64,000 nt of DNA from Spirochaetia bacterium (GCA_965198005.1 CBDAOI010000004.1:256001-320000); one strand, 5' to 3'. Positions 27,420 through 61,932 are shown, counted from the first letter of the stretch. The notes: generated by a model not told the origin, from the letters alone. Translations and numbers: made by a program.

Positions 27420-28259
27420 GTGCTGACCGAGCTGTCCTTGAGCGGCTTTCTGGCGTTCGCCACGGCGTATCCGTTGTGCTTCTGGGCCAACGCCGGGAGC
27501 ACCATCGAGCGCGGGTTCTACCGCTTCAACCTGGGGGTGAGCTGCTTCATTCTGAGCCTGGGGCTGTTCGCGCTGCTGTTCGCGCCGGCGGTGCCGGCGG
27601 GCGGCCGCTGGCACGCCGGCGGCGCCACCGGTGCGGCGGGGCTGCCGGCTGCGGTGCTGCCGGTGCTCGCCGTGGCCTGGCTGCTTGCGCTGCTGGGGGT
27701 GACCTGGGCGCAGTGGGAACGGGCGCGGCCGCGGCTGGCGCTGGTGACGCTGCCGTCGCTGGTCGGGGTGGTGGTGACCGCGGCCGTGGCCGTGGCGCGG
27801 GCGCCGCCGCCGGCGGCGCCCGTCTGGGCGGCGGCGCTCACCCTGCTCGGCGGCGTGACGCTCGCCCTGGCGCTGTACGCCATGGTGCTGGGGCACTGGT
27901 ACTTGAACGTCACCAAGCTGCCGATCGCGATTCTGGCGCGCGCGGTCGCGGTGTACGCCGGGTTCCTGGCCGTGCGTCTGGTCTGGGACGGGCTCGCCCT
28001 GGCCACGCACAGCGTGCCGTACCAGGGCTTCCCGCTGCCACTGTACGCTTTCGTCGGCACGCTGGACGGCTTCCTGGTAGCGGTGGCGGTGTTCTTCGGC
28101 ACGCTGTTTCCGCTGGCCGCCACCTGGCTGGTGCAGCGCACCCTGCAGGCCAAGTCCACCCAGGCCGCGACCGGCATCCTCTACGTGGTGGTGATCGCGG
28201 CGATCATCGGCGACTTCTCGTACCGGTTCTTCCTGCTGCGCTACGGGGTGGTGCTGTGA
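27420..28259 (+). CDS. Polytopic membrane protein upstream of the cox cluster
   Basis: Multiple hydrophobic segments, MVLGHWYL and STQAATGILY. Confidence 0.75.
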   Translation: MLTELSLSGFLAFATAYPLCFWANAGSTIERGFYRFNLGVSCFILSLGLFALLFAPAVPAGGRWHAGGATGAAGLPAAVLPVLAVAWLLALLGVTWAQWERARPRLALVTLPSLVGVVVTAAVAVARAPPPAAPVWAAALTLLGGVTLALALYAMVLGHWYLNVTKLPIAILARAVAVYAGFLAVRLVWDGLALATHSVPYQGFPLPLYAFVGTLDGFLVAVAVFFGTLFPLAATWLVQRTLQAKSTQAATGILYVVVIAAIIGDFSYRFFLLRYGVVL

Positions 28260-34836: not shown

Positions 34837-34926
34837 CGGGCGCCGGTGGCGTGTGCCGTTGGCGCGGATAGGGGCCGGATGCGAGAGAGTTGAAGCGGCA
34901 GGCATCCGGCGACCGTTGACGGAGGC

Positions 34927-42619: not shown

Positions 42620-43882
42620 GTGCCTCTCGACCCGCGCGCCATCATCACCAACGGCGAGAACGCCAAGACCGAGTTCAAGCGCGACGACCGCAACCTGCGC
42701 CCCGAGCATCTGGCCCGCGCGATCGTCGCCTTTGCCAACATGAACGGCGGCATGCTCGTGCTCGGGGTGGACGACGATGGCACGGTTTCGGGGGTATCCC
42801 GAACCAACCTCCAGGCTTGGCTGATGGACACCGTGATCGGGCGCTACGTCGATCCGCAGCTCATCCCCGACTACGAGGAGTTCGTGCTGGACGGCAAGCC
42901 GATCGCCGTCGTGACTGTATCCGCGGGGGCCGCCAAGCCGTACGGCGTGCGCCAGCAGGACCGGATCGATTACTACCTCCGACTCGGCGACACGGTCCAG
43001 CGCGCCGGCCGCGAGCAGATGGCACGCCTGTTTCAGTCCGGCGGCCTGGTGTCGGTGGAAAAGATGCCGGTGCACGGGAGTTCGTTGGCCGATCTCGACA
43101 TGCGCCGCCTGGAAGACTACTTCCTGAACATCCTGGGCGAGGACGCGGTGGACGATTGGCCGCGGACTCTGCTCAACCGCGACCTGCTGATTGCCGACGA
43201 GTGGCGGCCTGAGGTGAGTTGCTGTTCTTTCGCCGCGTGTGTGCTGTTCGGGCGGGAGCCCCGGCGCCGCATGCCGCAGGCCGGAATCCGGCTGCTGGTG
43301 TTTCCCGGAACCGACCTGGACTACGACGCCAGCCTGGACGAAGTGCTCGACCTCCCCTTTGTTGGCCTGAAGGAGCGCCGGGAGCGGGAGTTCATCGAGC
43401 AGTCGCTGCCCAGCCGCGTGCTCAGCTACCTGCAACCCCACGTCAGCCGCGAGCGCCTGGACGGAATGCAGCGGCGCCGGCATTGGGACTACCCCAAGGA
43501 AGTCATTCGCGAACTGCTGGTGAACGCCTTCGCGCACCGCGATTGGACCCGCCCCACCGACGTGCAGCTCACCGTGTTCGCCGACCGCCTCGAAGTGCAC
43601 AGCCCCGGCGCCCTGCCCAACGGCGTGACGGTGGAGAAGGCCACGGAAGGCCTGCGCGTCCCGCGGAACCCCAACATCGTCAACATCCTGCGCGACTACG
43701 AGTTCATGGAGCACCGCGGCATGGGCATCCGCCGCACGGTAATTCCCCTGACCCGCGCCCACAACGGCACCACCCCCGACTTCGAGGCCACCGAAGACTA
43801 CTTCAAAGTCACCCTCCGCAAGGGCGCGCGCCCCGAGGGTGCCGGTAGCGGCGTACGGGCGGGTTACGGTACCCTTCCGTAA
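42620..43882 (+). CDS. AlbA_2 (Schlafen-like) plus RecG-C/HATPase-like protein
   Basis: EFKRD, AFANMNGG, ELLVNAFAHRDW, SPGALP and RNPNI. Confidence 0.87.
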   Translation: MPLDPRAIITNGENAKTEFKRDDRNLRPEHLARAIVAFANMNGGMLVLGVDDDGTVSGVSRTNLQAWLMDTVIGRYVDPQLIPDYEEFVLDGKPIAVVTVSAGAAKPYGVRQQDRIDYYLRLGDTVQRAGREQMARLFQSGGLVSVEKMPVHGSSLADLDMRRLEDYFLNILGEDAVDDWPRTLLNRDLLIADEWRPEVSCCSFAACVLFGREPRRRMPQAGIRLLVFPGTDLDYDASLDEVLDLPFVGLKERREREFIEQSLPSRVLSYLQPHVSRERLDGMQRRRHWDYPKEVIRELLVNAFAHRDWTRPTDVQLTVFADRLEVHSPGALPNGVTVEKATEGLRVPRNPNIVNILRDYEFMEHRGMGIRRTVIPLTRAHNGTTPDFEATEDYFKVTLRKGARPEGAGSGVRAGYGTLP

Positions 43883-43893
43883 CGGGCGAATCC

Positions 43894-45285
43894 ATGAAGT
43901 TTCGATTCAAGAACCTCGGCCCAATTCAGGAGGCCGATCTGGAGCTCGGAGACCTTACCATCATCGCCGGCCGCAACAACACCGGCAAGACCTACCTCGC
44001 GTACGCTCTGTACGGCTTCCTCAAACGATGGCAATGGCCGTCGGCGAGCGTTTCTGATCTCCTGCGCCAAGAGGGCATGGAGCGCCACTTGGGTTCATCA
44101 GCATTCGCAGCCTTCCACAGGGGCTATACGATGAGTGCAGTAGATCGGCGTGAGCTTGACAAGCGGCGATCGGACGTGGCAAGAGCAATGGCTCGTGCAT
44201 TCTCACAGTCGGAATTAGCCCAAGTATTCAGTTCGGAGCGCGGCAGATTCGAAGGTGCTTCAGTCGAGTTGAGATCTGGCCTTCCTGAAGACGTACTACC
44301 AGCACATCTGCGTGATTCGTCCGGCGTCAATTATCGGATTCACTGGGAAGACGACCAGATCACCATATCAGTCGATGCTCCGCAGGGACAGCGGGTCAAG
44401 AAGGGACCAGCCATATTCGCCTTGGAGATGCTCTATTACAGATTCCTGTTTCCGGAGCTTGAAATCGAGCCATTCGTACTGTCATCCGAGCGCTTCGGTA
44501 TCTCCTTGTTTTATCGAGAGCTCGACTTCACCAAGAACAATCTGGTTGATCTGCTGCAAAGGATGCGTGATGAGAGCAACCCGGACCAATCCGATCCATT
44601 CCTTCTGATAGACAGGACGACCAGCCGATATGCCTTGCCCGTGAAGGACAACATCGACTACACGCGAAGTATCCCGGACCTCCAAGGCGCAAAGAGTGAA
44701 CTCTCCGAGCACAAACTGCCGACCGAACTGAGACGGCTGACGAACGCGTCCTACAAGAGCTCTGGCGATAGCATTGCGCTCACGTCGACCGCCCGCGGCC
44801 GGCGGCACTTCAGCATACCCCTGCACTTGGCATCCTCGTCAGCCCGTGGGTTGTCCGATCTCTACTTCTTCCTCCAGCACGTCGCTCGCGACAATCACCT
44901 GCTGATCATTGATGAGCCAGAAAGTCATCTTGATACGAAAAACCAGATCCTGATGGCCCGTCTGTTGGTCCGTTGTGTGCATGCAGGCCTGAAAGTCCTG
45001 ATCACTACCCACAGTGACTACCTCGTGAAGGAACTCAACAACCTGATCATGCTCAGCCGCGATTTTGAAGGCAAGGAAGACTTGCTCAAGAAGCTCAAGT
45101 ACGACCCTGACGATGTTCTGGACCCAAGTCAGATTCGTGCCTATGTTGCTGAAAAAGGTGCCTTGACCGCCTGCAGCGTAGACAAGTTCGGCATGGATAT
45201 GCCGAACTTCGATAGTACCATAGACGACATCAATCGAGTAACGAATGAGATCTCGTCGCGGATCTTCGACAGCGAGGAATCGTGA
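43894..45285 (+). CDS. ABC-type (AAA_21/AAA_15) ATPase
   Basis: GRNNTGKT, ASSSARGL, IIDEPESHL and ITTHS. Confidence 0.9.
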   Translation: MKFRFKNLGPIQEADLELGDLTIIAGRNNTGKTYLAYALYGFLKRWQWPSASVSDLLRQEGMERHLGSSAFAAFHRGYTMSAVDRRELDKRRSDVARAMARAFSQSELAQVFSSERGRFEGASVELRSGLPEDVLPAHLRDSSGVNYRIHWEDDQITISVDAPQGQRVKKGPAIFALEMLYYRFLFPELEIEPFVLSSERFGISLFYRELDFTKNNLVDLLQRMRDESNPDQSDPFLLIDRTTSRYALPVKDNIDYTRSIPDLQGAKSELSEHKLPTELRRLTNASYKSSGDSIALTSTARGRRHFSIPLHLASSSARGLSDLYFFLQHVARDNHLLIIDEPESHLDTKNQILMARLLVRCVHAGLKVLITTHSDYLVKELNNLIMLSRDFEGKEDLLKKLKYDPDDVLDPSQIRAYVAEKGALTACSVDKFGMDMPNFDSTIDDINRVTNEISSRIFDSEES

Positions 45286-45854
45286 GCGTAAGATTGAACG
45301 ATCAACTGGAGGCGATCCTTCTTGTCGATCGGCTGCGCAGCGTCGCATCGAACCGCGTAACTCTCCGCGAACGTCGTGCGAACATGTCGATCGAGGTAAC
45401 CGGTGTAGAATGGCGTGCCACGACGATCAACATCCACAGGCTCGGCGGCTTTTCCGGGTTAAGCAAAGGTGATTGGAACCAGAGATGTGACTACCTCATA
45501 GTGGTTGACAAGGGAGCCTCATACAGCGCCGCGTTCATCGAGTTGAAGAAGAACCTGGACGAGGCCTGCAAACCACTGGAGCAACTGCGTCGGTCTTTAC
45601 CGTTCCTGGAGTACCTGCGCTCGCTGTGCTGCATCCATTTCGGAGATGCCGCTCCGTCAGATGTCGAGGTCCGCTACGCGGTGATCGGGGAAAGGGGGCA
45701 ACTGCGACTGGACAAGCAGGCCGTGAAGGCGAGACCGGGACAGCCCGCTTGGACCAAGCCGCATCGTGGGATTTCGGTGTCAGCCTTCCTCGGGCCGACC
45801 GTTCCTCTGGCGGCCCTGGTCGGCGTTCAGGGGTCTGAACGGGCCGGACAATGA
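45282..45854 (+). CDS. Hypothetical protein with PD-(D/E)XK-like motif
   Basis: RCDYLIV...FIELKK...EQL; GTGA overlap with the ATPase. Confidence 0.7.
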   Translation: MSVRLNDQLEAILLVDRLRSVASNRVTLRERRANMSIEVTGVEWRATTINIHRLGGFSGLSKGDWNQRCDYLIVVDKGASYSAAFIELKKNLDEACKPLEQLRRSLPFLEYLRSLCCIHFGDAAPSDVEVRYAVIGERGQLRLDKQAVKARPGQPAWTKPHRGISVSAFLGPTVPLAALVGVQGSERAGQ

Positions 45855-45879
45855 GTGAGTCGCCGATAAAGCCGCGGCT

Positions 45880-46010
45880 TCATCGACGATCCGGAGTTCG
45901 TGGCGATTATCCGCCGCGATCTCGAGAAGGGTCAGCACCGGGGCGTCCCCGGAACCACCCAGTACTTCACCACGGCGTTCTTTCACCGCCCGGACGAGCT
46001 CGCCGCCGCC
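45880..46010 (+). pseudogene. SAM-dependent methyltransferase fragment
   Basis: DDPEFVAIIRRDLEKGQHRG...YFTTAFFHRPDELAA. Confidence 0.45.
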
Positions 46011-46280
46011 TCTCACTTCGCCGCCGTCGCCGCCCGCGTCCGTTGACCAATCGCACATCACGCCTTAGCCTGGAAACGTGGTGGTGGTGGACCGACCGCC
46101 TGACGTTCTCCCCACGCGGACGGGTCAGGCGCTGTTTATGCGCCTGCGACCGGCGTCCCGGGTTCGTTCTGCGCCTGGCTGCAATTCGGGAACCCGCGTA
46201 GTGGGAACCCGACCGTCCATGATGTCCGAGTGCAACGACTTGCGAGCGTTGCGATAGAAGAGCTGTCCTCAACGAGCGAT

Positions 46281-49238
46281 ATGCGGAGTATTCGTCATCC
46301 GATCCATCGCCGTTTCGACGCCGAGGACCTCGTGCGACTCCGCCGGTCATCCGAGCGACGGCGGTACGCGGCATCGCAACGGCTGGGGCGCATCGATCCC
46401 AACCCACACCAGATCGACGCGGTGATGTTCGCCCTGCGGCGGATACCCGAGGGCGGCTGTATTCTCGCCGACGAGGTGGGGTTGGGCAAGACGATCGAGG
46501 CCGGTCTCGTGGTTGCCCAGCTCATGGCCGAGGGCGCCGATCGTATCCTCATCGTCGTTCCCAAGCCGCTCCTGGGCCAGTGGCAGGAGGAGCTCTACAC
46601 CCTGTTCGGCATCTCCGCCCGCGAGGCTGCCGACACGGTATGCGACGTCACGGCGCCCGGCGTGTTCCTGGTCGGGCGTGAGTACGCGGGCAGCGTCACC
46701 GGTTCGGGACGACTGGCGACTGCGCCGCCGTTCGACCTGTGTGTCATCGACGAGGCGCACGAGATGTTCGCCGGCATCTACAAACGCTTCGACCGCTTTG
46801 GCGCGTACGACGAGAGCAGCGCCGCGGCGCAGACGGCGCACCGGGTTCGCAAGCTGATCGGTCCGGCGCCGGTCCTGCTGCTGACGGCCACGCCGATTCA
46901 GAACTCGCTCGCCGAATTGTGGGGGTTGCTGCACTACGTCGAGCCCACCGGGACGCTGGTGGGCTCGTTGGCGACCTTCAAGGCGCTGTTCTGTGCAGGG
47001 CAGGATGGTCGGCGGCTGGTTCCCGAACAGGCACCGGAACTCCGGCGACGGCTTGCCGAAGTGGTGCAGCGGACGCTTCGCCGCCAGGCGCAGGAGTTCC
47101 TGGACAAGCCCTTCGTCGGCCGCCGCGCCGAACTCTACGAGTACTCGATGAGTCCCGACGAGAAACAGCTCTATGACGACGTGACGAACTACCTCTTGTC
47201 CCCCAGCCTCAACGCGTTCCAGGGTCGTTCGCGGCAACTGTTGCTGATCGGTTTTCATCGGCTCATGGCGTCGTCCACCGCGGCGTTGGCGAACAGTCTG
47301 GAACGGGTGGCAGACCGACTGCGGCGGATGCGTCAGGGGTCGCCTGCTGCCGAACCTGCCCGCGTCATCGAACCGCTTACCAGCGATCTCGATGACGATG
47401 AACTGTCGGCAATCGAGGATGATCCGGTCGTCGAGAGCGCGACGACGATCGGCCGCGAGCTGACCCTGGTCGAGGACTTCGTTCGCCGCGCCCGCTGTCT
47501 CCCACACGACAGCAAGGCGCATAGCCTGGTCAAGGTCGTGCGCTCCATCGGCGACCGGCGCGGCGGGAACGCCAAGCTCGTGGTGTTCACTGAATCGCTG
47601 ACGACGCAACAGTATCTTCGCGACTTGCTGATCGAACACGCCGCACTCGACGAGAGCGAGATCACCTTGTTCCGCGGCCACAACGACTCGCCGCGCGCGC
47701 GGCAGGCGCTGCGTCGCTGGCAGGAAGAGGTCGGCAGGCACCTTCCGGCGCACCGTCTACCGAGTCCGGACATCGCCGTGCGGCTGGCGCTAGTGCACGA
47801 GTTCAAGACCCGTTCGCGCGTGCTCATCGCTACCGAAGCGGGTGCCAAGGGCCTCAACCTGCAGTTCTGCGACACCATCGTCAACTACGACCTCCCGTGG
47901 AACCCACAGCGCATCGAGCAACGGATCGGCCGCTGCCATCGCTACGGTCAGAAGCGCGACGTGACGGTCGTCAACTTCCTGGCCAAGGACAACGAGACAC
48001 AGCGGCTGACGCTGGAGATACTGACGCAGAAGCTCGACCTGTTCGGCGACGTGCTGGACATGTCCGATTCGGTGCTGCACGAGGCGCGGTCGAACCGGTC
48101 GGAGGAATTGACCACCGCCCTGGGCGCGGACTTCGAGCAGCAGCTCAACCGAATTTGGGAGCGCGCCCGTTCGGTCGACGAAGTCGAGGAGGAACTGCGC
48201 CGCCTTCGGGAATGCATGGAGGACCGGCGCCGGGAACTGGACCGGATGCGGGACCATACGACCGGCCTCATCGAGACTCGTTTGGATGACTCCGTGCAGC
48301 AGGTGTTCCGGCGCATCGCCGACGAACTGCCCGCCACGCTCGCCGCATTGGATGCCGACCTTGAGCGGATCGTTACCGACTACCTGCGGGCCAACGGAGT
48401 CGACCATGCCACCGAAGTTCAGAAACGGAGGCGGCTGATCCGCATCCCCGCTTCCGAGCGGCTTCCCGGTGCGCTGTCGGAAGGACTCTCGGTCGCGGCC
48501 GGCCAGGCGGATGCGTTGCAAGAGGTCGATGCCCTGCACGTCGCCCATCCGCTCGTGCAGGCTGCGATTGACGATGCTCGACGGAGAGGAGCCGGAACGT
48601 TTTCGGTGCGGTTCCGTCTCACGGCGCAGGCGCCGGAGGTGCTGAAGCAGCGCCGAGGGTCACGGGGACGCTTGGCGTTGAGCCGCATCTCGCATCGGGG
48701 TTTCGAGCGCGAGGATCGCTTGGTAGCGACCGCCGTGTTCGAAGATTCGGCAGTCCTGCGGCCGGCCGAAGCAGCGCTGGAGTTGCTCGGTATGCCGTGC
48801 GAAGATCTGCCGGCTGCGCTCGGCGACCTGTCCGTGGCCGCCGGCGACCTGGACGAAGTGGTAGACGAAGAACTGTTCTCCGATCAAACACATGCCGCCC
48901 ACGCGGAAACGAAGGCATTCTCTCGTGCTCTGGACCAGCTCGACCAGTACGTCGAAGATCGACTGCTGGTGCTGCGGCGCGGTCAGCGGGAAATCTCGGA
49001 TCAGCTCAAGCAGGCCGAGGAACGGCGCGACGCAGCGTTGGGCGCCGATGCTCGCAGCCGAGCCGAGGACCGCATCCGGCGCCTGGAACTCGAGCTGAGC
49101 GACGCCGAAGATCGGATCGAACGGCTCGCGGCCCGAGATGACAGCGACTATGAGCGTTGGCGGTCGGCCGCCCACCGCCGCCGGTACCAACCGCCGCAGG
49201 CTGCACGGCTGTTCGACCTGGAGTTCGTCATCGCATGA
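46281..49238 (+). CDS. SNF2-family helicase with long C-terminal extension (ORF open from GTG 46230)
   Basis: LADEVGLGKT, DEAH, LTATPIQN, TEAGAKGLNLQF, NYDLPWNP and QRIGRCHRYGQ. Confidence 0.94.
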   Translation: MRSIRHPIHRRFDAEDLVRLRRSSERRRYAASQRLGRIDPNPHQIDAVMFALRRIPEGGCILADEVGLGKTIEAGLVVAQLMAEGADRILIVVPKPLLGQWQEELYTLFGISAREAADTVCDVTAPGVFLVGREYAGSVTGSGRLATAPPFDLCVIDEAHEMFAGIYKRFDRFGAYDESSAAAQTAHRVRKLIGPAPVLLLTATPIQNSLAELWGLLHYVEPTGTLVGSLATFKALFCAGQDGRRLVPEQAPELRRRLAEVVQRTLRRQAQEFLDKPFVGRRAELYEYSMSPDEKQLYDDVTNYLLSPSLNAFQGRSRQLLLIGFHRLMASSTAALANSLERVADRLRRMRQGSPAAEPARVIEPLTSDLDDDELSAIEDDPVVESATTIGRELTLVEDFVRRARCLPHDSKAHSLVKVVRSIGDRRGGNAKLVVFTESLTTQQYLRDLLIEHAALDESEITLFRGHNDSPRARQALRRWQEEVGRHLPAHRLPSPDIAVRLALVHEFKTRSRVLIATEAGAKGLNLQFCDTIVNYDLPWNPQRIEQRIGRCHRYGQKRDVTVVNFLAKDNETQRLTLEILTQKLDLFGDVLDMSDSVLHEARSNRSEELTTALGADFEQQLNRIWERARSVDEVEEELRRLRECMEDRRRELDRMRDHTTGLIETRLDDSVQQVFRRIADELPATLAALDADLERIVTDYLRANGVDHATEVQKRRRLIRIPASERLPGALSEGLSVAAGQADALQEVDALHVAHPLVQAAIDDARRRGAGTFSVRFRLTAQAPEVLKQRRGSRGRLALSRISHRGFEREDRLVATAVFEDSAVLRPAEAALELLGMPCEDLPAALGDLSVAAGDLDEVVDEELFSDQTHAAHAETKAFSRALDQLDQYVEDRLLVLRRGQREISDQLKQAEERRDAALGADARSRAEDRIRRLELELSDAEDRIERLAARDDSDYERWRSAAHRRRYQPPQAARLFDLEFVIA

Positions 49239-49272
49239 CCGGACCGACGTGAACGGGCACAAGGGAGTGAAC

Positions 49273-50397
49273 GTGGCACTCAAGATACTGCACACTGCCG
49301 ACTGGCATCTCGGCTTGCGATTCCCCGCAGTGACTCCCGAGCAGGAGCAACGATTGACGCGGGCGCGCCTCGAAGTGGTGGGGCGGATTCTCGATCTCGC
49401 CGAGAGCCGTGGAGTAGACGCGGTGCTCTGCGCCGGCGATCTGTTCGACGAGCCGCGACCGGACGAGGAGTGGTGGCAGGGACTGCTGTCCGAGTTCCGG
49501 CGGAGGTCGTGGACGCGGCCCGTCATCCTGCTCCCGGGAAACCACGACCCGTTGACGCCGAACTCGATCTATGCACCAGGAGATCCGTTCCGGCGCGCAC
49601 TGCCCGGCTACGTTCACGTGGTCGATTCCGATGAGTTCGAGTTGCCGCTGGGGTCTGCCGCGGTCGTGTACGCGAGGCCGTGCCGGTCGCATGCGGGTCA
49701 GACCGGCTTGGCGGCCAGCCTTCCGGCGCGTGCCGATGGGGATGAGCGGATTCGCATCGGGCTCATTCACGGCCAGACCTTCGACCTCGAGGATCATCAG
49801 ACCACGTTCCCGATAGAACGGAATGCGGCGGTGGACCGCGGACTCGACTATCTCGCGATCGGCGACACGCACGGTTATCGCGACGTGGAGCCCGATGCCA
49901 AGGCTCCGACCATCTATCCGGGAGCACCCGAAGCGACCAAGTTCGGGGAGAGCGATTCCGGCCACGTCGCCGTGGTCTTCTTTCCGCGCGACCGGGCGCG
50001 GCGGGCTCTGGTCGAACGAGAAGCGGTCGCGGCCTGGTCGTGGCGGGAAGAGACGTGCCGTTCCCTTGCGGAGCTGCGGCGGTTGCGCGACAAGAACATG
50101 AGAAAGACCGTGCTCAGACTCACGCTGGAGATGCGACTGCCACTGCACGAATACGACGAGGCTGCGCGCATACTGACGGAGCTGGAGGGGTCGTTGTCGT
50201 CCCATCCCAAGGTCGGCGTGCTGATCGCCGACCGCAGTCGGCTGCGCCTCGACGCGGCCGATTCGGCGCAGTTTACGGAGGACTGGCCCGAGGTGCTCCG
50301 GTCCGCTGTCCAGCGGCTCACGGAGCGTGCAGCGGACGATCCGGAGAAGGCGGAGCGTGCCCTGCATCATCTCTACGGATTGGTCCGGGAGCCATAG
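49273..50397 (+). CDS. Mre11/SbcD-like metallophosphoesterase nuclease
   Basis: HTADWHLG, AGDLFD, PGNHD, HG and YLAIGDTH. Confidence 0.93.
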   Translation: MALKILHTADWHLGLRFPAVTPEQEQRLTRARLEVVGRILDLAESRGVDAVLCAGDLFDEPRPDEEWWQGLLSEFRRRSWTRPVILLPGNHDPLTPNSIYAPGDPFRRALPGYVHVVDSDEFELPLGSAAVVYARPCRSHAGQTGLAASLPARADGDERIRIGLIHGQTFDLEDHQTTFPIERNAAVDRGLDYLAIGDTHGYRDVEPDAKAPTIYPGAPEATKFGESDSGHVAVVFFPRDRARRALVEREAVAAWSWREETCRSLAELRRLRDKNMRKTVLRLTLEMRLPLHEYDEAARILTELEGSLSSHPKVGVLIADRSRLRLDAADSAQFTEDWPEVLRSAVQRLTERAADDPEKAERALHHLYGLVREP

Positions 50398-50399
50398 CG

Positions 50400-53300
50400 A
50401 TGTGGATCAGGCAGATCTCCGTGCGGCACTTCGCCGGAATCCGCTCCGCCGAAGTCTCCTTCGAACACGGCCTCAACGTCCTCTACGGACCGAACGAGAT
50501 CGGCAAGTCGACGCTCGTGGATGCCATGCGTGCCGCCCTGCTGCTGCAGCACGGCGCAACGGCCGCCCGCGACTTCGAGGATTGGCATACCGATCAACCC
50601 CCGCAGGTGAAACTGACGTTCGAGACCGAGCCACAGCGCATCTGGCGCGTGCGCAAGAGCTTCGGCAAGGGGTCGGATGGGTCGAGCTACCTGGACTTCT
50701 CGCGTGATGGAAAAACCTTCACTCAGGACGCCAAGGGCCGGGAGGTGGACGGCCGGATTCGAGATCTGCTGCGCTGGGGCCTGCCGGCACCAGGCGGCAA
50801 AGGGAGCCCCAGGGGATTTTCCGAGTCGTTCCTGGCGACCACCCTGCTGGCCGATCAGCGCGCCGTCGCCGCCGTGCTCGACCGCAACCTCGACGATGAC
50901 TCCGACGAGTCAGGAAAAGGACAACTGACCGCCGCGCTGCAGGCGCTCGCCGAAGACCCGGTGTTCCGAGCCGTCGTCGCCCGCACCCAGCAGCGCGTGG
51001 ACGAGGCGTTTACGGGCACCGGGCAACGGAGCCGACGTCGGGGATCTCCATGGATAAACCTTCGAGACCAGCGTCAGGCCGCCGACCAGCGCCGAACCGA
51101 GATTCGCCGCCGCGTTACCGAGAGTGACGATGCCCGCACCCGGGTCGACAAGCGCCGCGAGGAGCTCGACGAAGCCCGCAGCCAATTCGACAACGCGCGG
51201 CGGCGTCACAAGCGGATCGACGCCGCCTGGGAACGGCAGCAGGCGAGAGCCGCCGTCAGTGCCGAAATCGCCGAGGCAGAGCGCGAACGAGACCGGATTC
51301 AGGGTCTTCATGACGACCTGGACAAGGCCGGACGGGAACTGTCCGCTGCCAAGGAAGCGGTCAGCGCAGCCGACAAGGGCATGGAACAGGCGGCCGAAAC
51401 AGAGCGGCGCGAACGCGACTGCCGCGAAACCGCTCGCAAGCACTTGGCCGAACTGGAGAGTGGCGACGCCCAGCAGAAGCGAACGATCCGCAAGCAGGAG
51501 ATCGAGAATCTCCGGCTCAAGAACAAGAATCGACGAACGGAAGTCGAACGCGTCGAGGCGGAAGCGTTCGGAGTTCGAGACCTGGAGACCGCGACGCAAC
51601 GGCTGCGTGCGGATCTGACGGCCAAGTCACGGCAGCTCACCGCGACCGCGTCGCGCGTGCAGCAGGCTCAGGAGCAAGTCCGGAAGGACGATGCTGAAAT
51701 CAGTCGAATTACCGAACGTGCCATGGGTCTGAAACTGCTGGAGCTGCGGAGGCAGCTCGCCGCGATCGACGAGTCCGTTCGCCGCGCCAAGGAATTGCAG
51801 TCACGGGCGCAGGCGAAGTCGGAGCGGGCGAATGCGCTGCGCACGTCGGTAGAGGATCTCTTCTTGCCCGATTCGGAACAGGTGGAAACACTGCGAGCGT
51901 TGCAGACGGATCTCCGGGTTGCGGAAGAGACTTTGCAAGTGGGAGTTTCCGTCGAGATAACGCCGCTCCGGCCGATACCCCTCACGACCCGCGCCGACGG
52001 GGGACCACCCCGGACGGACGACCTGACTCGGCCGGTTGCGGTCGAAGCGGCCGCGCGCCTCCGTCTGGAGCTGGAGGGTGTCGGTCAGATCGAGATTCAG
52101 GGCGGTCGCCGCGACTCCCGTCAGCGAGCTTCGCGGCTGCGAACGGAGTGGGCCGACGCGACGTCCGGACTGTTCCAACGCCTCGCAGTTGACAGCCTGG
52201 AAGAGGTCTTTGCGAAATGCCACGCCGGCGAAAAGACGCTGGCCGAGGCCGACGGTCTGGCTCGCGAAGCCAAACAGGAAAACGAGAGAGCCGCGGCTCT
52301 GATTCATGATGACGGGTTCATCGCCGAGCGCGGGCGGGAGCTGCAACGGCTTGAACGACAGCTCAGGTCTGGTCTCGGCGAACGCGACCTTGAGGAGTTC
52401 GTTCGCCAGTGCGCGTCCGGCGACGGACTCGACGCGGCTTCGCTGGAAGAGCAGCTCGAATCCATTCGTGCTGACCGTGATCGCAGAACAGGGCGAATCG
52501 CCCAGCTTCAACGGGAAGTTTCCCGGGCCGAGGGAAGCATCGAGCCCCGGCAGCAGGAGCTGGATAAGCAGGAAGCCGCGCTCGAGGAAAAACGGGAGGC
52601 TCTCGACGCTTCCTGGGAGTCGGCTCTGGGACATGCGGAAACGGAACTCGAGATCCTGAGAGAAGAAGCCCGGAGTCTGCAGACGGAGCTCGAAACGCTG
52701 GAGACCGGGGCCAGCAACGAGATCGAACAAGCCCGAACCATCGCCCGGCAGGGTGCGCAGCGGCTTGCGGTCGCCGAGTCGCGCAGCACCAAGTGTAGAG
52801 AGTCGGTCCAATCGGCGCGGGAGGCACGCGACCGGCTGGCGGGCAGGGTCGATGAGCGCGCCGCTCTGGTGCAGCGCGAAGATCTTGCAACCGCACACGC
52901 GCACGTCGAGGTTCTACACGCCAAGTTCACGGAACTGCCCGTACCCGAGATGAAAGTCACCGAACAGGACCGCGAGCAGGCAGGGGAAACCGTGCGGCTT
53001 TTGACCGAAGAGTGCAACGCCGGGCACGCTGAGCTGCAGCAGGCGGAAGGCGCGCTGCAACAGGTTGGTGGTCATTCCGTCCAGGAGCAACTCGAACAGG
53101 CAAACGAGGCCGTGAAGGCGATCGAGCGACGCGAGGGCGAGATCGAAATCGAATATGGCGCCTGGAAGCTGCTGCTCGAAACGCTTCGGGAAGCCGAGGC
53201 CGAAGATGCCGTGCACCTCGGGAAGGCGCTCGTCGACCCCGTATCGCGACGAGTCTCCGAACTGACCGGCGGAGCGTACGGCGAGGTCTCGATCGCGCCG

Positions 53301-53618
53301 ACGCTGTCGACTCGGAACATCGAGGTCGCCGGCAGTGAACGGGAGCTCTCGCGGTTGTCGGTCGGGACCCGAGATCAGCTTGCAACCGTGCTGCGTCTCA
53401 CCATCGCGGAGAAGCTGGGCAGCACCGTCGTCCTGGACGACCAGCTCGTGCAGAGCGACGCATCGCGCATGCGCTGGCTGTACGAGTTCATGCTGCAGTG
53501 CGCCAAGGAGTTTCAGATTCTCGTGCTCACCTGCCACCCCGAACACTATGCGCGCGCCGATCGACGCCCGCTGCGCTCGATCGACCTCACGCAACACGTC
53601 GAGCGCACGCGACCGTAG
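50400..53618 (+). CDS. Rad50/SbcC (YhaN-like) coiled-coil ABC ATPase
   Basis: GPNEIGKST, long coiled coils, LSVGTRDQL, VLDDQLVQSD and LTCHP. Confidence 0.92.
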   Translation: MWIRQISVRHFAGIRSAEVSFEHGLNVLYGPNEIGKSTLVDAMRAALLLQHGATAARDFEDWHTDQPPQVKLTFETEPQRIWRVRKSFGKGSDGSSYLDFSRDGKTFTQDAKGREVDGRIRDLLRWGLPAPGGKGSPRGFSESFLATTLLADQRAVAAVLDRNLDDDSDESGKGQLTAALQALAEDPVFRAVVARTQQRVDEAFTGTGQRSRRRGSPWINLRDQRQAADQRRTEIRRRVTESDDARTRVDKRREELDEARSQFDNARRRHKRIDAAWERQQARAAVSAEIAEAERERDRIQGLHDDLDKAGRELSAAKEAVSAADKGMEQAAETERRERDCRETARKHLAELESGDAQQKRTIRKQEIENLRLKNKNRRTEVERVEAEAFGVRDLETATQRLRADLTAKSRQLTATASRVQQAQEQVRKDDAEISRITERAMGLKLLELRRQLAAIDESVRRAKELQSRAQAKSERANALRTSVEDLFLPDSEQVETLRALQTDLRVAEETLQVGVSVEITPLRPIPLTTRADGGPPRTDDLTRPVAVEAAARLRLELEGVGQIEIQGGRRDSRQRASRLRTEWADATSGLFQRLAVDSLEEVFAKCHAGEKTLAEADGLAREAKQENERAAALIHDDGFIAERGRELQRLERQLRSGLGERDLEEFVRQCASGDGLDAASLEEQLESIRADRDRRTGRIAQLQREVSRAEGSIEPRQQELDKQEAALEEKREALDASWESALGHAETELEILREEARSLQTELETLETGASNEIEQARTIARQGAQRLAVAESRSTKCRESVQSAREARDRLAGRVDERAALVQREDLATAHAHVEVLHAKFTELPVPEMKVTEQDREQAGETVRLLTEECNAGHAELQQAEGALQQVGGHSVQEQLEQANEAVKAIERREGEIEIEYGAWKLLLETLREAEAEDAVHLGKALVDPVSRRVSELTGGAYGEVSIAPTLSTRNIEVAGSERELSRLSVGTRDQLATVLRLTIAEKLGSTVVLDDQLVQSDASRMRWLYEFMLQCAKEFQILVLTCHPEHYARADRRPLRSIDLTQHVERTRP

Positions 53619-53757
53619 CCGCCTCAGCCAGCGGAGCGCGGCCGCAAATCGCGAACCTGACCCGCCAACCACGACACCACGATCTCCCGCGTTGCCGATC
53701 CGGGCGCAAGGGCAGTATGCTGGCGCGAGGAGGTGCGGCGAACACACCGGCTTATTC

Positions 53758-54200
53758 ATGGGACGCATCGTTAGCTCCGTGATCGTGGAGAACGTGCCTG
53801 CAACCCGCGCCGTCCGAATCGACGCGTCGGTTGATACGGGCGCCGCGACTTGAACATTGATGAGTCGGTTTTCGAGCGGCACGTGCTCCTCGTCACGGCA
53901 ACGCCGCACAGCGGCAACGAGGATGCGTTCCGCTCCCTGCTGAGCCTGCTCGATGAGGAGATCGCCGACCTGCCGGCGGACCTGGACGGAGCGGAACGCG
54001 AAGGCGCCCGCCGGCGGCTCGCTCGTCACCTCGTGCAGCGCCGCCGCGGTGACATCCGCCGGTACCTCGAGGGGCTGCGCGGCGGCGTCGAGCGCGCACT
54101 TGCCATCCTTGGCGCCGGCTTCACCGGCCATCCCAAGAACGAGGTGTTGCGCGAAGCGGTACGCTCCGGATCGCTCACCCCGACGGGGTGTCTCGAGTGC
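53758..54200 (+). pseudogene. Fused fragments: aspartyl protease start, DISARM DrmD-like helicase and a methyltransferase-like piece
   Basis: [24 protein letters not shown]...[33 protein letters not shown]. Confidence 0.65.
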
Positions 54201-54365
54201 CGAGTAGAGGGCGCTGGACGGCACCGAGTGGCGCCTCGGCTGGGCCACGATGTTGAGATTAAGCGCCTTCCAATACGTTGGCAGCAGAGGCCGGAGTGGC
54301 GATGAGCCGCATGATGTAACTGCCGTGACGGACGACCGGCCGATTAGGAATCCCGGGGCAAACAC

Positions 54366-54770
54366 TTACGCTTGAATCTCTCCAAGCCACGTGAAACCGA
54401 GGTGTTGCCGAGTAAGCGAAATGACGAACGGTGGGGGCATGTGGAGAGTAAGGGCCAGGACCGAATTTCGATGCTTGTCGATGACCTGAGCCGCCTCCTC
54501 TTCGGTGGATAGCCGAGCGGCGATTACCACCAGCCCCAGCCGGGCATGCTGTATTGCCTGTAACTCTACCAGTCTGCGTCGAAGTTTCTTGTCGCCGCTC
54601 ACGGCAATCCAACGCCGCTTCGCTACATTCGGGATCCAATCCACGTCGCGATCACCCGATTCGATGCCAGGCACATCGCGATAAGTAACAGCGTGCACGT
54701 TCATCTTACGCAGCAAGCTGACAAGTCGAGGACCGTACGTCTCGTCCACATAGAAGGTGGGAGGCGTCAC
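54366..54770 (-). CDS. VapC45-like PIN toxin
   Basis: FYVDETYG, DVDWI and AVSGDKKLR. Confidence 0.8.
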   Translation of the reverse strand: MTPPTFYVDETYGPRLVSLLRKMNVHAVTYRDVPGIESGDRDVDWIPNVAKRRWIAVSGDKKLRRRLVELQAIQHARLGLVVIAARLSTEEEAAQVIDKHRNSVLALTLHMPPPFVISLTRQHLGFTWLGEIQA

Positions 54771-56109: not shown

Positions 56110-57304
56110 ACCACCGTCATCACCGACTACGCGCAGGTCGCGTTGCTGCTGCACAGCGTTCGGGAAGACCACAGCGGGGCATACCTTGCCGCGCTCGCGG
56201 CCAAGGGCATCCCCGCGTTCTGTCCGCGCGCCAGGGCGCTCTTCGAGATAGCGGAGATCGGTTAGCTGGTCGCCTGCTACGCGGTTCTGTTCGGCTGGCA
56301 CGGCGCCGGCCGCGGCGCGGTGCGCGGTGGCGCGGCTGGCACGCTACGTGGATCGAGCCATCGTGCAACTTGCCCGGCGCCTCGGCGATCCGCACCCGCT
56401 CGCGCAGGCGCTCCAGGGGTGGACGGCGCAAATCGCCGCGCTGCGAGCGGGAGAGACCCTCAATCTGCGCCCAGCCGACTACTTCTACCGTCTCCTTGCG
56501 CTGGAGCCGTTCCGGAGGGCCGTCCGCAACGTGCTGAACCTGGGAAAGTACGAGCGGCACTACTGGCAGGGCGTTACGTTCGGCGGGAAGGATACAAGAC
56601 CGGTTACCGAACAGGCGCTCTACGAGTACCTTGCCTTTATACTCTTATACTCAAACTCTACGGCGCGCAGCCGTTGCCGGGACTGACGCACCTTCACGGC
56701 AAGCGACACACCGCCATGGTGCACATCGGGGCGGTGGACGCGCCGGTCACCATCGACGAGATAGACGCGGCGGTGGATGAATGCCGCACGCTCCGGCAGA
56801 AGGAGCTGCACGTGCTGGGCTGGGAGTGGGAGATGGGGCTGTACGATCTGATGGTGGACGCGGCGAAGGCAAAGGGGCGTAAAGCTCCTGCTTCTGCAGA
56901 TACCGCGCGAGGTGATGGAGCAGCAGGCGGCCGACAAGGGCGACGTGCCGTTCTTCGAACTGGCCTACCTGGAAGCGGCGGTCGAGCGTGGGGAGGAGAA
57001 GCTCACCGCGCGGGTAACGCTCAAGGACTTCGTGATCCCCAACCCGGAACTGATCCCGGACGAGGTGCGCAGCAAGATCACGAAGTGGTCGGACTACATC
57101 GACTACTGGGCGATCGACCGGGACTTCCGCAGCGACACCTTCATGCAGGGATGGGTGGCGTACCGAACGCGCAAGGAGCGCACTCTGTCGCTCGCCTCCG
57201 ACCGGCACACGTACGAACGGGCAGGCGCGTACCGGGTGCTGGTCAAGGTGATTGACATCTTCGGCAACGATGCGTCGCAGGCGTTCGACCTGGAGGTGCG
57301 GTAA
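56110..57304 (+). pseudogene. Fused fragments: UvrD-like helicase and C-terminal part of a type III-like DNA methyltransferase
   Basis: VALLLHSVRE; NLGKYER, LGWEWEMGL, WSDYIDYWAID and VKVIDIFGND; several frame breaks. Confidence 0.7.
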
Positions 57305-58217: not shown

Positions 58218-60669
58218 TTATGGCGTTGCTCCACCGACTCTCGGCTGAATGACGATACGCTGGCTCACTTCCTGATACACCGGGACTCCCTCTCCGGCTT
58301 CGATCGTCACGGCCAGCCCAACCGCGGGGCACGGACTTGTCCGAAGGCTGCGAACTGCTTCGACTCACGCCGATGCTTTCGTTGAATGTTTCGGGATGGA
58401 TCTCAAGTTTCGCTTGGCGATACGCCCGGTGACGAACGTTCACCGGCGAGAACCACGCAAGTGTCAGCCTAATTGATCGCGGCTTGGTAACTCGTTCGAG
58501 GCTCGGCGGTAGCGGAACTCGATACAGAAGCGCTGTGTCTTCGGCGTGAACCTCGCCGTATCCTACCAGCGTCGCTCAGTTCGCAGCGCAGGTCATGGCC
58601 TGTTCGACGATCGGGGCGCCATAGCCCAAAACACGAGAGATATTGTCCCTGCGTGTTACGTGGGTGCCTCGGCCAGTCGGTCCGTAGATGGCGTCAAGCA
58701 ATTCCCCCAGATCATCCCAACGCGCCCGATGTACCAGAAGCGCCTTGACGACGACTCCGTAGAACAGCGGGTCGACATCGGCAAGTATCCCTCCGTTGTC
58801 CTGATCCGACAACGCACCGAACAGGCGATGTGCCGCCCGTGTCGCCAGGGCCGTAGCGGCGCTCGTCCCGGCCGTCAGTCCCTCCTGGTCGAGTTGCCCG
58901 CCGGCGTCGGGGATCGCGGTCTTCAAGCCGTAGAGCCGTCCGGGCGGCACGTGGCGAATGCTGAGCTGCCCACCGGTGCTCACGATACTGAAGAGTTCTC
59001 GACCTCCCGGCATGAAAATATCGGGCTTGACCACCTTGCGATGTCCCACCCAGGGCAGAGGTAATGTTTGGCCCCGCGTGTACGTATGGTTCGTACACGA
59101 TACCGGACCCGTTCGCGCCGCCCACTGCGTCCTCATTCCATGCCCCCACGGTGATCACGTTCAGTGCTTCTGCCGGCGACAACAACGTCCGCTGGGAGCG
59201 CTGTCCGTCCAGTGCGCTGAGAATCGCTTTCTGTCGATCTGCCGCAGTGGCAGCTTCCAGGTCTGTGGTCCCGGTGAACGTGGGAACCGGCAGGGGATCA
59301 GTGACGTTCCCGGCGCTGACCACGAACAGGATGCCAAACCGCTCCGCGAGGTAGTCGAGCAACCGCCCCCACGGACTCATCGGCCCGGTAAATGGACGGT
59401 TCCGATCCCCGAGGGAGAGGTTCACGATGAACACCTCCGGAGCAGTGGCGTCACCCTGAGTCCCCGATCTTCATTCTCCGGACCGCGCGATAGATGGTAT
59501 CCACCAAGAGACGATCCGGTTGGGGCCGCTCAGATGATCCGTTGCCGGGAGCGTAGAGAACTGGTCGCAAGTACAGCGGACGTCGCAGGGACGGCTCCCC
59601 CCGAACGTTGCGGTCTCCGTGCAGGATCAGCGACGCCATCTCCGTACCGTGACGCCGTTCCGCGACGACGCTGAGCGCGTCGAGATCGTCCGGGTCGTCC
59701 AGCCGGAGGCGCTGGTCCAGCAGCCGGTGTCGCTGCACGGGAATACCGTCGAACAGCGCTGCGATCGGGGGAGTGTCAGCTTCCGGCGACGGGTCGACCG
59801 GAAGCCCGGAACCAAGCGTGGTGACCGCCGTGGGGAACAGAGTGATCGATTGCGGCCGCACGTACATGACCCCATCGCAGATAGCGAGCAAGGTTTCCTG
59901 TCGTTGAATCAGACGCCGGACCTCAGCCGCCGGCAGATCCACCAACGCGGCTTCATAGGCGATCTCCGGGATCGAGCAACGGCGGACCAACTCACCGCCG
60001 GAATCGCGGACCGCCGCCTCCAAGCGGGCATTTGCCCGCCGCTGGTTCTCACGGCTTTGGTGACTCCACAGTTCTATCTCAACGCGTACGGTGGCATCGG
60101 GACGGTCCGCGAGTTGCTCATTGAAGTAGTCGATCGTCTCCTCCGAAATTCGATCGGACGGTCCCCAAGCGCGGAGTTGATGGAGTTGGCGAAACACTTC
60201 GTGCCATGGTGCGAAGCCAGTGTCAGCCGGATGCCCCGCCTGGTAGCGATCCCAGAGACTGACCAACTCGCGGAGTGCCTGCGTATCAGGCATTGCGACA
60301 TAGAGGCGACCGCCAACCGGCTTATCAAGACGAGGCTCACCGTCGCGGCCCTTACGAGTATCCCGTATGGCGAAGTCGGTGTCTGGCTCGAACTCCGTTT
60401 CCTCGTCGCCGAGCAGTTCCAGTCCGGGAACGCGGCGCACAGCCTCATGAAACTTGTCGATCATGCCTGCGACTTCAAGCACCAGCGCCCACTCCGGCGC
60501 GATGCCGGCGGGGTCTTCACACAGGGTCAGCGGGTCGCGTTCTTCGTCGAAGACGGCGCGGAGGCGCTGGAAGACCGGCCCCAGCCTGTGGCCCTGCCGT
60601 GTCCGGTCAGGTAGCTGCAGCCTGCCTCCGCCGCCTGAGCCCGGCGGGCGTCGACGGAAACTCCGCCAA
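58218..60669 (-). pseudogene. S8 subtilase (IetS-like), multiply frameshifted and deleted
   Basis: Catalytic triad pieces ALFDG, HGTEMASLILHG and GTSAATAL are spread over at least four reading frames. Confidence 0.85.
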
Positions 60670-61657
60670 CCGATGTCTCCTGGCGTGCGGATGCGTGCGA
60701 CCGCTCAGCCCAGAGAGTCAACCGGTCGGTGACGATGGCCCTGAGCGGCTGTTCCCCCGGCGCGAGGGTGCTGCGTCGCCGCACGTCTCTGCAGAACTCC
60801 TCAGCTTCCGCGTAGCTGATGGCGCCAAGAGACTTTGCGATGGTCTCCGCGGTGCGACCAAGCGGCTCATCGAGGGTAGCGGCGAAACGTGCGATATAGG
60901 CGGCGAGCTCTCGCCGCGTCGGTGGGTCGAGCAGGAGGCGCACCTGAAACCGGCGCCACGCCGCGCGATCAAGGAGCTCGGCGTGGTTGGTGGCGGCTAC
61001 CACCACGGTATAGCTGGGCAGATCGTCCACCTGCATCAGGAGCGACGTTACGACGCGTTTGATCTCTCCGGTCTCGTGGACGTCACCTCGCTCCTTGCCT
61101 ACCGCATCGAATTCGTCGAAGAACAGTACGCACGGGGTCGTGCGGGCGTAGTCGAAGACTCGCTTCAGACGGGCCGCGGTCTCCCCGAGAAAGCTGCCGA
61201 TCATCGCTTCATAGCGCACCACGAAGAACGGAACGGCCAACGCTTCGGCTATCGCCTCTGCGAGCGACGTCTTGCCGTTGCCGGGCGGTCCCACCAGCAA
61301 TACTCGGTGTCGCGGCTCCAGCGAGTGCGCCCGCAGCAGCGGGGCCCGGTGCTGTTCCTCGATCAACTCGTCGCACGCGCGCCGGGCAAGATCGGAGAGG
61401 ACCAACTCCGCGATCCGCCGGCGAGGGGTCAACTCAAGAAGAAACTCCCGATGATGGCGCTGGCCGTCGCCGGCGAATCTCGCCGCGGCAGGTCTTGCCC
61501 CGTTTGCGCGCATCGCCTCGGTCAGGCGCTCGGCAAGCACATTGTGCTGTTTTGCGCGTTCCTCGGCGATGATCGCTTCCGCAACGGAGCGGGCGCGCGT
61601 CGCGTCGCCGCTCGACCCGGCCTTCACCAGCGAAACGAGGAGGTCGCTCCGCGCCAT
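60527..61657 (-). CDS. AAA+ ATPase (IetA-like); true stop probably lost in the deletion at the ietS start
   Basis: GPPGNGKTS, SFLGET, FFDEFD, ETGEIKRVV and AATNH...LDRAAWRRF. Confidence 0.9.
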   Translation of the reverse strand: MARSDLLVSLVKAGSSGDATRARSVAEAIIAEERAKQHNVLAERLTEAMRANGARPAAARFAGDGQRHHREFLLELTPRRRIAELVLSDLARRACDELIEEQHRAPLLRAHSLEPRHRVLLVGPPGNGKTSLAEAIAEALAVPFFVVRYEAMIGSFLGETAARLKRVFDYARTTPCVLFFDEFDAVGKERGDVHETGEIKRVVTSLLMQVDDLPSYTVVVAATNHAELLDRAAWRRFQVRLLLDPPTRRELAAYIARFAATLDEPLGRTAETIAKSLGAISYAEAEEFCRDVRRRSTLAPGEQPLRAIVTDRLTLWAERSHASARQETSVGGVSVDARRAQAAEAGCSYLTGHGRATGWGRSSSASAPSSTKNATR

Positions 61658-61932
61658 GACAGTACCCCCGTGTTCCGAACTGCTCCGGATTGGAGCACAT
61701 TTTCCTCATGGTATGCTGCCAGGCACGGAACGTCCACCAACCGACGGCACCGGAGATCGAGGACGTCCGTCCGCCGACCGCCTCGTGATTGGACGGCCCG
61801 CCGCCGTCGCCGGATCAGGACGCGACGATCAGTTCGGTTTCGCCCGCTCCCGTGCCTGGCCGTTGCCGCGCTCGCGCAGGCGCGCCTCCAGTTCGGCCAC
61901 CCGTGATGACAGCCGCGCCACATAGCGCGACG

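Follow-up and report, generated by a model that had tools for sequence, protein, structure and literature searches.

The window analyzed here, that is, the whole 64,000-nucleotide stretch of a Spirochaetia bacterium genome (GCA_965198005.1, CBDAOI010000004.1:256001-320000), contains three intact genes that encode an SNF2 motor protein, an Mre11/SbcD-like nuclease and a Rad50-like ATPase, which together we call the trio. All three lie on the + strand and are free of internal stops. A first-pass annotation of the same DNA had described three co-oriented genes separated by gaps of 34 bp and then 2 bp, and these coordinates and gaps proved exact. The genes, together with two of their domains, are as follows:

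46281..49238, + strand: gene for a RapA/DrmD-like SNF2 (SF2) DNA translocase of 985 aa, with an ATPase core (residues ~36-600) and a tail predicted to be RapA-like (600-985)
48078..49235, + strand: tail of the SNF2 protein (residues 600-985), modeled as long helices, a beta domain and a helical hairpin, on which the nuclease is predicted to dock
49273..50397, + strand: gene for an Mre11/SbcD-like calcineurin-type phosphoesterase of 374 aa, with a family-specific C-terminal half
50400..53618, + strand: gene for a Rad50/SbcC/SbcE-like, SMC-type ABC ATPase of 1072 aa without a zinc hook
51861..52109, + strand: apical (central) domain of the ATPase (residues ~488-570), one helix and six beta strands replacing a hook or hinge

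The nuclease gene has a GTG start, with the sequence AAGGGAG 6 nt upstream, and is translationally coupled to the ATPase gene. The GC content of the window is 0.65-0.70; the GC content at third codon positions is 0.75-0.80 in the trio vs. 0.92-0.95 in nearby core genes. Scanning positions 45700-54400 for promoters and terminators gave one promoter-like and five terminator-like sites, no excess over shuffled sequences (0.5 and 4.6), and none of them usefully placed. The catalytic motifs, which the annotation had called intact, were all found, and they are invariant in alignments of 19 (nuclease), 30 (ATPase) and 25 (SNF2) homologues.

The SNF2 protein displays the motifs GLGKT (67), DEAH (157), TATP (202) and QRIGRCHRYGQ (547), and is placed in the SNF2 family by its scores for PF00176 SNF2-rel_dom (84.9 bits, cut-off 24.9) and PF00271 Helicase_C (59.4 bits, cut-off 23.5). 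The closest named families are DrmD_b (NF038318, E 1e-118) and PADLOC DrmD (PDLC02619, E 6e-120), followed by BrxH (E 1e-58), HmaA, DpdE and RapA; since the best named matches are DrmD, BrxH, HmaA and DpdE, the protein falls in a defense-linked family. It is nevertheless no equivalog of DrmD, scoring 398 bits against a cut-off of 950 for NF038318 and 230 against 610 for NF038317, nor of RapA (PRK04914, 134 bits against 576). Among solved structures, the best sequence match is RapA (E 9e-24). RapA carries N-terminal RNA-polymerase-binding domains; here, just ~36 residues precede the ATPase core. The DrmD models align to residues 510-961, that is, into the tail, and the tail is therefore part of the family likeness. 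A structural model of the tail (residues 600-985, 18 sequences, predicted local distance difference test score [pLDDT] 85) exhibits long helices, a beta domain, a helical hairpin and a terminal strand. When this model was submitted to Foldseek, the C-terminal region of RapA was retrieved in four chains (E 1.7e-6 to 1e-5), the next best match being at 0.08. The tail as modeled is thus RapA-like by fold even when taken alone. The C terminus of the protein bears an invariant H965-x-x-R968...P972 motif.

As for the nuclease, its motifs are DWH (10), GD (55), GNHD (89), H166 and GDTH (197), and residues D10, H12, D56, N90, H91, H166 and H200 are invariant in 19 sequences. Its score for PF00149 Metallophos (52.4 bits, cut-off 21.5) places it among the calcineurin-like/Mre11-type phosphoesterases. 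Motif V, canonically GHxH in such nucleases, reads GDTH. The protein stays below the thresholds for SbcD, with 67.5 bits against 77.65 for TIGR00619, over residues 3-93 only, and 38.8 bits against 450 for PRK10966. Similarly, solved SbcD/Mre11 chains match residues 3-94 only, the C-terminal half has no match among solved structures, and no PADLOC family matches the protein at E ≤ 0.01. A comparison with representatives at 50% identity returned 111 proteins at E ≤ 1e-30. By our own reading of the table, about 30 of these are full-length nucleases of the trio type (at least 40% identity, E < 1e-60), set apart from the remaining representatives (39% identity or less, E ~1e-37). In one database representative of 1338 aa (P0372), a trio-type nuclease (residues 1-269, 60% identity) is fused to a trio-type ATPase (from residue 347), which may be a true fusion or a sequencing or read-through error.

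The ATPase exhibits the motifs GPNEIGKS (30), Q153, LSVG (986), LDD (1012) and D1020. Its Walker B motif reads LDD, the canonical motif ending in D-E, and the H-loop position 1046 is H here and H or R across the family. Split-head motifs, fold and Foldseek relatives place the protein in the SMC-like ABC ATPase superfamily. Pfam finds SMC_N, AAA_15, AAA_23 and, over residues 1-47 only, AAA_27 (23.1 bits against a cut-off of 22), which we take to be a YhaN-type N terminus; one source gives the name "YhaN" to a protein 90% identical to the ATPase. Solved Rad50 head chains match at E 8e-7, and family matches, weak for GajA and LmuB, cover the head domain only. In an AlphaFold model (30 sequences, pLDDT 80), the head is built from two halves (residues 1-215 and 940-1072), helices at residues 217-485 run outward, and several helices return, giving two long coiled coils with an apex made of a helix and six strands (residues 492-567). 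P490 and D533 in this apex are invariant and G515, P522 and G569 nearly so (30 sequences). The first-pass description of an ATPase without CxxC but with a central beta-rich segment is thus borne out, since none of the three trio proteins contains a CxxC and the apex of the 30 aligned sequences holds no conserved Cys. Besides lacking this motif, the protein reaches at most 41 bits with Rad50 models, whose cut-offs are 700-1087, and in a search of its own genome TIGR00618 does not match the trio locus; it is therefore no member of the SbcC/Rad50 families. A Foldseek search with the whole ATPase, whose result is dominated by heads and coiled coils, found SMC5/6, condensin, MukB, JetC and Rad50 (E 5e-20 to 1e-6), the heads grouping with Rad50. 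An ESM Atlas search with residues 480-600 returned unnamed clusters only.

The three genes are kept together far beyond the spirochetes. We scanned one genome per species and fetched 80 loci, of which 17 (L002-L018), with nucleases 49-69% identical to ours, are close relatives. Gene order and strand are the same in all 17, as the annotation's proposed check on conservation of the unit had anticipated. The SNF2 gene lies directly upstream, its product 50-62% identical over the full length, including the tail, and the ATPase gene directly downstream, with 31-36% identity overall and ~50% in the heads; in L004, it is split into two open reading frames (ORFs). These loci span at least five phyla (Gammaproteobacteria, Acidobacteriota, Rokuibacteriota, Myxococcota/"delta proteobacteria" and Verrucomicrobiota, including metagenome-assembled genomes [MAGs]). 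Among the remaining 63 loci, in which the nuclease is at most 47% identical in its best segment, only L042 contains a weak match to the SNF2 protein. All-vs.-all clustering of the ORFs in 18 loci revealed no cluster common to three or more loci outside the trio span, the further clusters being alternative reading frames of the trio genes. The flanks differ in every locus.

A predicted complex supports a physical link between the motor and the nuclease. Modeling the nuclease with the SNF2 tail gave scores of 0.69, 0.72 and 0.72 (median 0.72), the best of three controls reaching 0.06, and the runs have at least 85% of contacts in common with a partner pLDDT of at least 73. In calibration, this mark was reached by 58 of 80 solved complexes and two of 110 mismatched pairs, counts that hold only roughly because our own alignments were used. 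We know of no solved complex of this kind, and a memorized structure is therefore, in our judgment, an unlikely source of the score. On the SNF2 side, the predicted interface comprises residues 859-896 and 950-971, including the invariant H965 and R968; on the nuclease side, it comprises residues 1-4, 26-47, 234-254, 275-278 and 308-312, including the invariant I39-A43 and F236-R244. The nuclease, in turn, would bind the ATPase, as suggested by homology and by the single fused protein P0372.

The distribution of the trio is patchy. In a survey of 40 genomes, close homologues (65-93% identity) are present in four of 10 other species of the host genus (G001, G003, G005 and G006) and in one of 13 species of a sister genus (G014), but in none of the 17 drawn from the remaining families of the order. 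No close homologue is found in G007, G009 and G010, which are closed genomes of the genus, and the trio is consequently not a core locus. In the genus, it occupies one hotspot, a variable island downstream of an oxaloacetate decarboxylase (OAD-beta) gene. The closed, trio-less genome G007 displays at this site OAD-beta, a Schlafen-like gene, a PD-T4-4-like ATPase gene, a 190-aa gene, ~1 kb of sequence and a homologue of the AAA_22 gene that lies at 61789 in the window. In G001 and G005, the trio sits between the Schlafen/PD-T4-4-like and AAA_22 flanks, while G009 and G010 have different content after the Schlafen-like gene. No integrase adjoins the trio at this hotspot in the 20 kb examined. 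Elsewhere, the trio lies between a helicase-nuclease gene and conjugation genes encoding a TrwC relaxase, a T4CP (coupling protein) and a VirB11-like protein (L013), beside integrases (L018 and L011) and beside a transposase fragment (L005).

The nuclease-ATPase pair resembles SbcCD/Mre11-Rad50 in that a calcineurin-type nuclease with N-terminal nuclease motifs is followed by, and coupled to, an SMC-like ABC ATPase with Rad50-like heads and long coiled coils. In contrast to these proteins, it has a beta-rich apex rather than a CxxC hook, an obligatory SNF2 partner, a Walker B motif reading LDD, a motif V reading GDTH and an unmatched C-terminal half of the nuclease, and it leaves the curated cut-offs for SbcD, SbcC, Rad50 and Mre11 unreached. 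A closer parallel is SbcE-SbcF (YhaN-YhaO) of Bacillus subtilis: SbcE is described as an additional SbcC-like ATPase that has a unique central domain in place of a hook and is encoded beside the SbcD-like SbcF, the two being conserved in Gram-positives and acting in the repair of double-strand breaks and in transformation/competence (PMC2811018). Like that pair, ours is hook-less and includes an adjacent SbcD-like gene. The likeness is one of architecture, together with the AAA_27 match of 23.1 bits against 22 over 47 residues. Unlike SbcE-SbcF, the trio pair is mobile, patchy and part of a unit with a RapA-like SNF2 protein.

The SNF2 protein has its counterparts in defense systems. Both DISARM I and ARMADA are reported to include a RapA-like SNF2 helicase, the ARMADA protein being ArmA, a relative of DrmD/BrxHII (PMC13463889; 10.1101/2025.09.15.676423), and a DrmD-like SNF2 protein is reported to be required for ietHAS protection (PMC13069673). 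Like DrmD of DISARM, BrxHII of BREX, ArmA of ARMADA and IetH of ietHAS, our protein is the motor module of a multigene locus in a defense island. It differs from them in its partner, an SbcCD-like nuclease, and the trio lacks a conserved neighbor of the methyltransferase, YprA/DUF1998 helicase, PLD nuclease or IetAS types. The locus is not a DISARM class 1 system either, since only the trio genes are conserved in the 18 loci and the 31 window ORFs compared with PADLOC give no match to DrmA, DrmB or DrmC except for a weak DrmA match. With Lamassu (an LmuB SMC-like sensor and a nuclease effector) and Wadjet, the trio shares the combination of an SMC/Rad50-like ATPase and a nuclease, which those systems use against foreign DNA; Lamassu is reported to detect the ends of viral DNA and to descend from repair machinery (PMC12663957). 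Unlike them, it has no homologues of LmuA, LmuC or JetABD, and it combines an Mre11-type nuclease and full Rad50-length coiled coils with an SNF2 motor. The LmuB models match only at E 1e-9 to 6e-6 and no further gene is conserved, which sets the trio outside Lamassu.

No full catalogue match had been expected in the first-pass annotation and none was obtained, the nuclease having no PADLOC hit and the SNF2 protein and ATPase only partial or subthreshold ones. The words SbcC, SbcD and Mre11 do not occur in the portions available of the ARMADA preprint (10.1101/2025.09.15.676423), the ietHAS paper (PMC13069673) and a study of BREX diversity (PMC12839542). No link between an SNF2 protein and an SbcCD pair is made in the available parts of these three texts, of PMC2811018, of PMC13463889 or of PMC7824862, the last of which describes SbcCD homologues as nearly universal in jumbo phages. 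A search of the literature, outside of which lay a 2020 classification of ABC ATPases, found no description of an SNF2-SbcD/Mre11-SbcC/Rad50 operon. The trio is thus a real, conserved, mobile and self-contained unit, named in no family library and in no literature we found.

The surroundings of the trio are those of a defense island, as claimed in the first-pass annotation. Its principal neighbors are:

25393-27525, - strand: GmrSD/HEC-06 (Orf5) type IV restriction enzyme, full length (E 6e-224)
34894-36468: RecQ-like helicase, DpdF-like, with a weak DrmA match (E 1e-6)
42620-43882: Schlafen/AlbA_2 and HATPase_c_4 gene, with weak pAgo-associated matches
43894-46201, just upstream of the trio: low-GC (0.54-0.56) operon of a PD-T4-4_A-like ATPase gene (E 1.8e-100), a 190-aa gene and a 116-aa ORF
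53835-54302, downstream of the trio: SNF2 helicase remnant of 156 aa, DpdE-like (E 4e-15)
56320-57301, downstream of the trio: type III methyltransferase remnant, two out-of-frame C-terminal pieces
60530-61705, - strand: IetA-like AAA ATPase (E 2e-146)

The window further holds PDC-S01 and MNT/HEPN genes, and the 343-aa ORF adjoining the IetA-like gene (59451-60482, - strand) could be a candidate IetS partner. Most neighbors had been called shattered, which is only partly true: the SNF2 and type III methylase remnants downstream are likely those of a decayed restriction-like system, but the Schlafen and PD-T4-4-like genes upstream align over their full length with those of a relative. In the upstream operon, the 190-aa gene has a weak PDC-M47B match (E 1e-8) and the 116-aa ORF has overlapping stop and start codons; the PD-T4-4_A-like and 190-aa genes align over their full length in G007 and G005, and the operon is probably a separate, intact defense pair. 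G005, G007, G009 and G010 all have the Schlafen-like gene next to OAD-beta, and in L003, a gammaproteobacterial locus, the trio has a similar gene as its neighbor.

Defense genes also flank the trio in other genomes. We examined 124 ORFs of at least 110 aa within 10 kb of the trio in the 15 related loci with flanks, counting specific PADLOC hits at E ≤ 1e-15, and found such genes in seven:

L003: Schlafen/pAgo-associated and Ppl-like
L004: HEC-05 and a GajB-like UvrD
L005: a type II restriction-modification pair
L006 and L013: PDC-S37/Hhe-like helicase-nuclease
L016: HmaA/HmaB-like
L018: AbiEi, RmrA-like and, by Pfam, RloB

We set aside as generic the mad3 match to an ABC transporter (L002) and mad3/mad8 matches to ABC-type ORFs, as well as the match of a relaxase to RecD and the PDC-M16A match (L013) and that of a kinase to PD-T4-6 (L014). 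The enrichment near defense genes that the annotation had proposed to check is seen when these seven of 15 loci are set against 11 SNF2-less relatives (110 flanking ORFs of at least 150 aa), none of which has a recognized defense neighbor, or one if two helicases in L024 are counted, mad3/mad8 being otherwise the only matches; the comparison is rough, with ORF cut-offs of 110 vs. 150 aa, small numbers and related genomes.

We propose that the trio is a putative, previously undescribed and methylation-independent nuclease machine that attacks linear or end-bearing DNA of invading phages or plasmids, a proposal that we hold to be evenly poised between right and wrong. Defense is nonetheless the best-supported role, accessory repair being a serious rival, and the two may coincide. 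The defense nuclease suggested in the first-pass annotation is partly supported, by the conserved unit, its absence from catalogues and its defense context, and is weakened by the trio being the only SbcD-like locus of its genome. Besides the roughness of the flank comparison, several other observations weigh against defense. Eight of the 15 related loci have no recognized defense neighbor, and in L002, L008 and L009 the trio lies among metabolic genes. In the 72,556 plasmid and 50,697 phage records searched, there is no close homologue; relatives of at most 35% identity occur in 63 plasmid records (61 from Rhizobium) and one phage record, none of them a trio. The closest studied relatives of the pair, SbcCD and SbcEF of B. 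subtilis (PMC2811018), are repair factors. The evidence for expression is a hint only: four metatranscriptome runs, drawn from three studies, yielded contigs that are 90-99% identical to the trio and together extend across its two gene junctions (48096-49820 in X23 record 26 and 50217-50918 in X19 record 6, with X20 record 12 and X23 record 28 likewise bridging junctions), but contigs cannot show a single transcript, and carried-over DNA is possible.

The main rival is a mobile, SNF2-assisted analogue of SbcCD/SbcEF that serves genome maintenance as an accessory module for the repair of double-strand breaks and hairpins, resecting ends, removing protein-blocked ends and cleaving palindromes while the motor clears obstacles at ends. 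We regard this as possible, if on balance improbable; it is the main rival since the closest studied pair, SbcEF, repairs DNA and four of the six trio holders in the host family (f1), the window genome included, have no canonical SbcD. The pair is homologous to SbcCD/Mre11-Rad50 and, in common with SbcE as described in PMC2811018, its ATPase has no CxxC and a distinct central domain. The window genome (G000, 90% complete) contains no other SbcD-like gene and no SbcC, and SbcC and SbcD of G007 used as queries found nothing in it at E ≤ 1e-20. Within the family, a canonical SbcD above the TIGR00619 cut-off is present in two of six trio holders (G001 and G014) vs. 14 of 15 non-holders of at least 90% completeness, a pattern that fits functional replacement but could just as well stem from one loss event within a subclade. 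The first-pass check for a separate housekeeping sbcCD thus had a divided outcome: the trio is the sole SbcD-like locus of its genome, and it is not a core locus. Two neighborhoods point the same way as the SbcD pattern. In the Acidobacteriota MAG locus L007, Ku and a full LigD (ligase, phosphoesterase and primase-polymerase) lie 1.6 kb downstream of the trio (15970-20600). In all four Corynebacterium loci (L024, L025, L026 and L042), a DUF3670-type SNF2 gene, which we presume to be HelZ-like, lies upstream and on the same strand as a related hook-less pair, separated from it in L024 (5496-13951) by a 229-aa gene; the SNF2-nuclease link thus exists outside defense islands too. Against repair stand the patchiness of the trio within one genus, its insertion into a variable island whose other cargo consists of defense genes, its spread across phyla at up to 69% identity and the kinship of its motor with the DrmD/BrxH/ArmA group employed by defense systems. 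Moreover, G001 and G014 hold both the trio and a canonical SbcD. The canonical sbcCD of G007 lies in a ~30-kb stretch (G007:C1:1861716-1891927; L098 and L099), and for only five of the 21 ORFs in this stretch does G000 hold a counterpart, these five being spread across three contigs. Canonical sbcCD may thus itself be flexible-genome content in the genus, and since G000 is without this ~30-kb stretch, its absence there may be ordinary flexible-genome turnover.

That the trio is cargo of integrative elements, processing their own DNA ends, excluding competing elements or acting in counter-defense, is in our view unlikely. The conjugation, integrase and transposase genes described above, and flanks that differ at every locus, would fit such a role, but most loci have no element genes within 10 kb, the plasmid and phage records yielded no close homologue, and the site used within the genus is a single chromosomal hotspot, with no integrase adjoining the trio in the 20 kb examined. 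Still harder to credit are three independently acting neighbors, namely a stand-alone SNF2 defense helicase beside an SbcEF-like pair. Pairs without SNF2 are indeed widespread (63 of the 80 fetched loci), and the pair can therefore work without the motor of the trio. However, the trio is complete, with short gaps between its genes, in all 17 close loci, contigs of matching size carry close homologues of each gene, the trio-type nuclease forms a separate sequence group, and the docking prediction far exceeds its best control.

Returning to defense, we offer a more specific and decidedly tentative mechanism of modification-independent immunity, in which a RapA-type motor mounted on the nuclease drives a hook-less clamp that processively destroys free or protein-capped ends of invading DNA. 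By homology, the ATPase would dimerize via its heads and apical beta domain and assemble with the dimeric Mre11-like nuclease into an SbcCD-type clamp that closes on ends, hairpins or protein-capped ends upon ATP binding. The RapA/DrmD-like motor is predicted to attach to the nuclease through the helical hairpin near its C terminus and the terminal H-x-x-R...P motif. Translocating on duplex DNA, it could feed the nuclease and turn end-nibbling into processive destruction; alternatively, it might strip proteins that shield the ends, much as RNA polymerase is displaced by RapA. Since a circular chromosome exposes no ends, the cell's own DNA would escape attack. Break repair could rely on this chemistry as well, and defense and repair are not mutually exclusive.

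If the trio acts in defense, it would represent a new mechanistic type, in which a machine of the Mre11-Rad50 kind serves immunity with a motor of its own and no methylase, and the RapA/DrmD-like SNF2 module already found in DISARM, BREX, ARMADA and ietHAS would serve more effectors than known. Under the tentative mechanism above, it would parallel in bacteria the way MRN and SNF2 remodelers work together in eukaryotic end resection and antiviral sensing. A repair role, on the other hand, would make it the first SbcCD-type complex of bacteria to have an obligatory SNF2 partner, and a simple model for the aid that SNF2 proteins give to end resection, usually studied in chromatin. Whichever role applies, the predicted tail-nuclease interface and the apex without a hook offer definite structures for testing.

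A few minor observations concern the rest of the window. Outside the trio, parts of the stretch are thinly covered by the RNA libraries, from which we conclude nothing. An antisense ORF at 52914-54365 (483 aa) was rejected as a gene because its "homologues" elsewhere all lie antisense within the ATPase gene and it has no Pfam match. Positions 2298-23165 contain mobile-element debris, consisting of a DruA fragment, an IstB fragment, rve integrases, two reverse-transcriptase ORFs (one truncated), two tyrosine recombinases and an IS110 transposase, together with an oligopeptide ABC transporter (GC 0.56-0.58).

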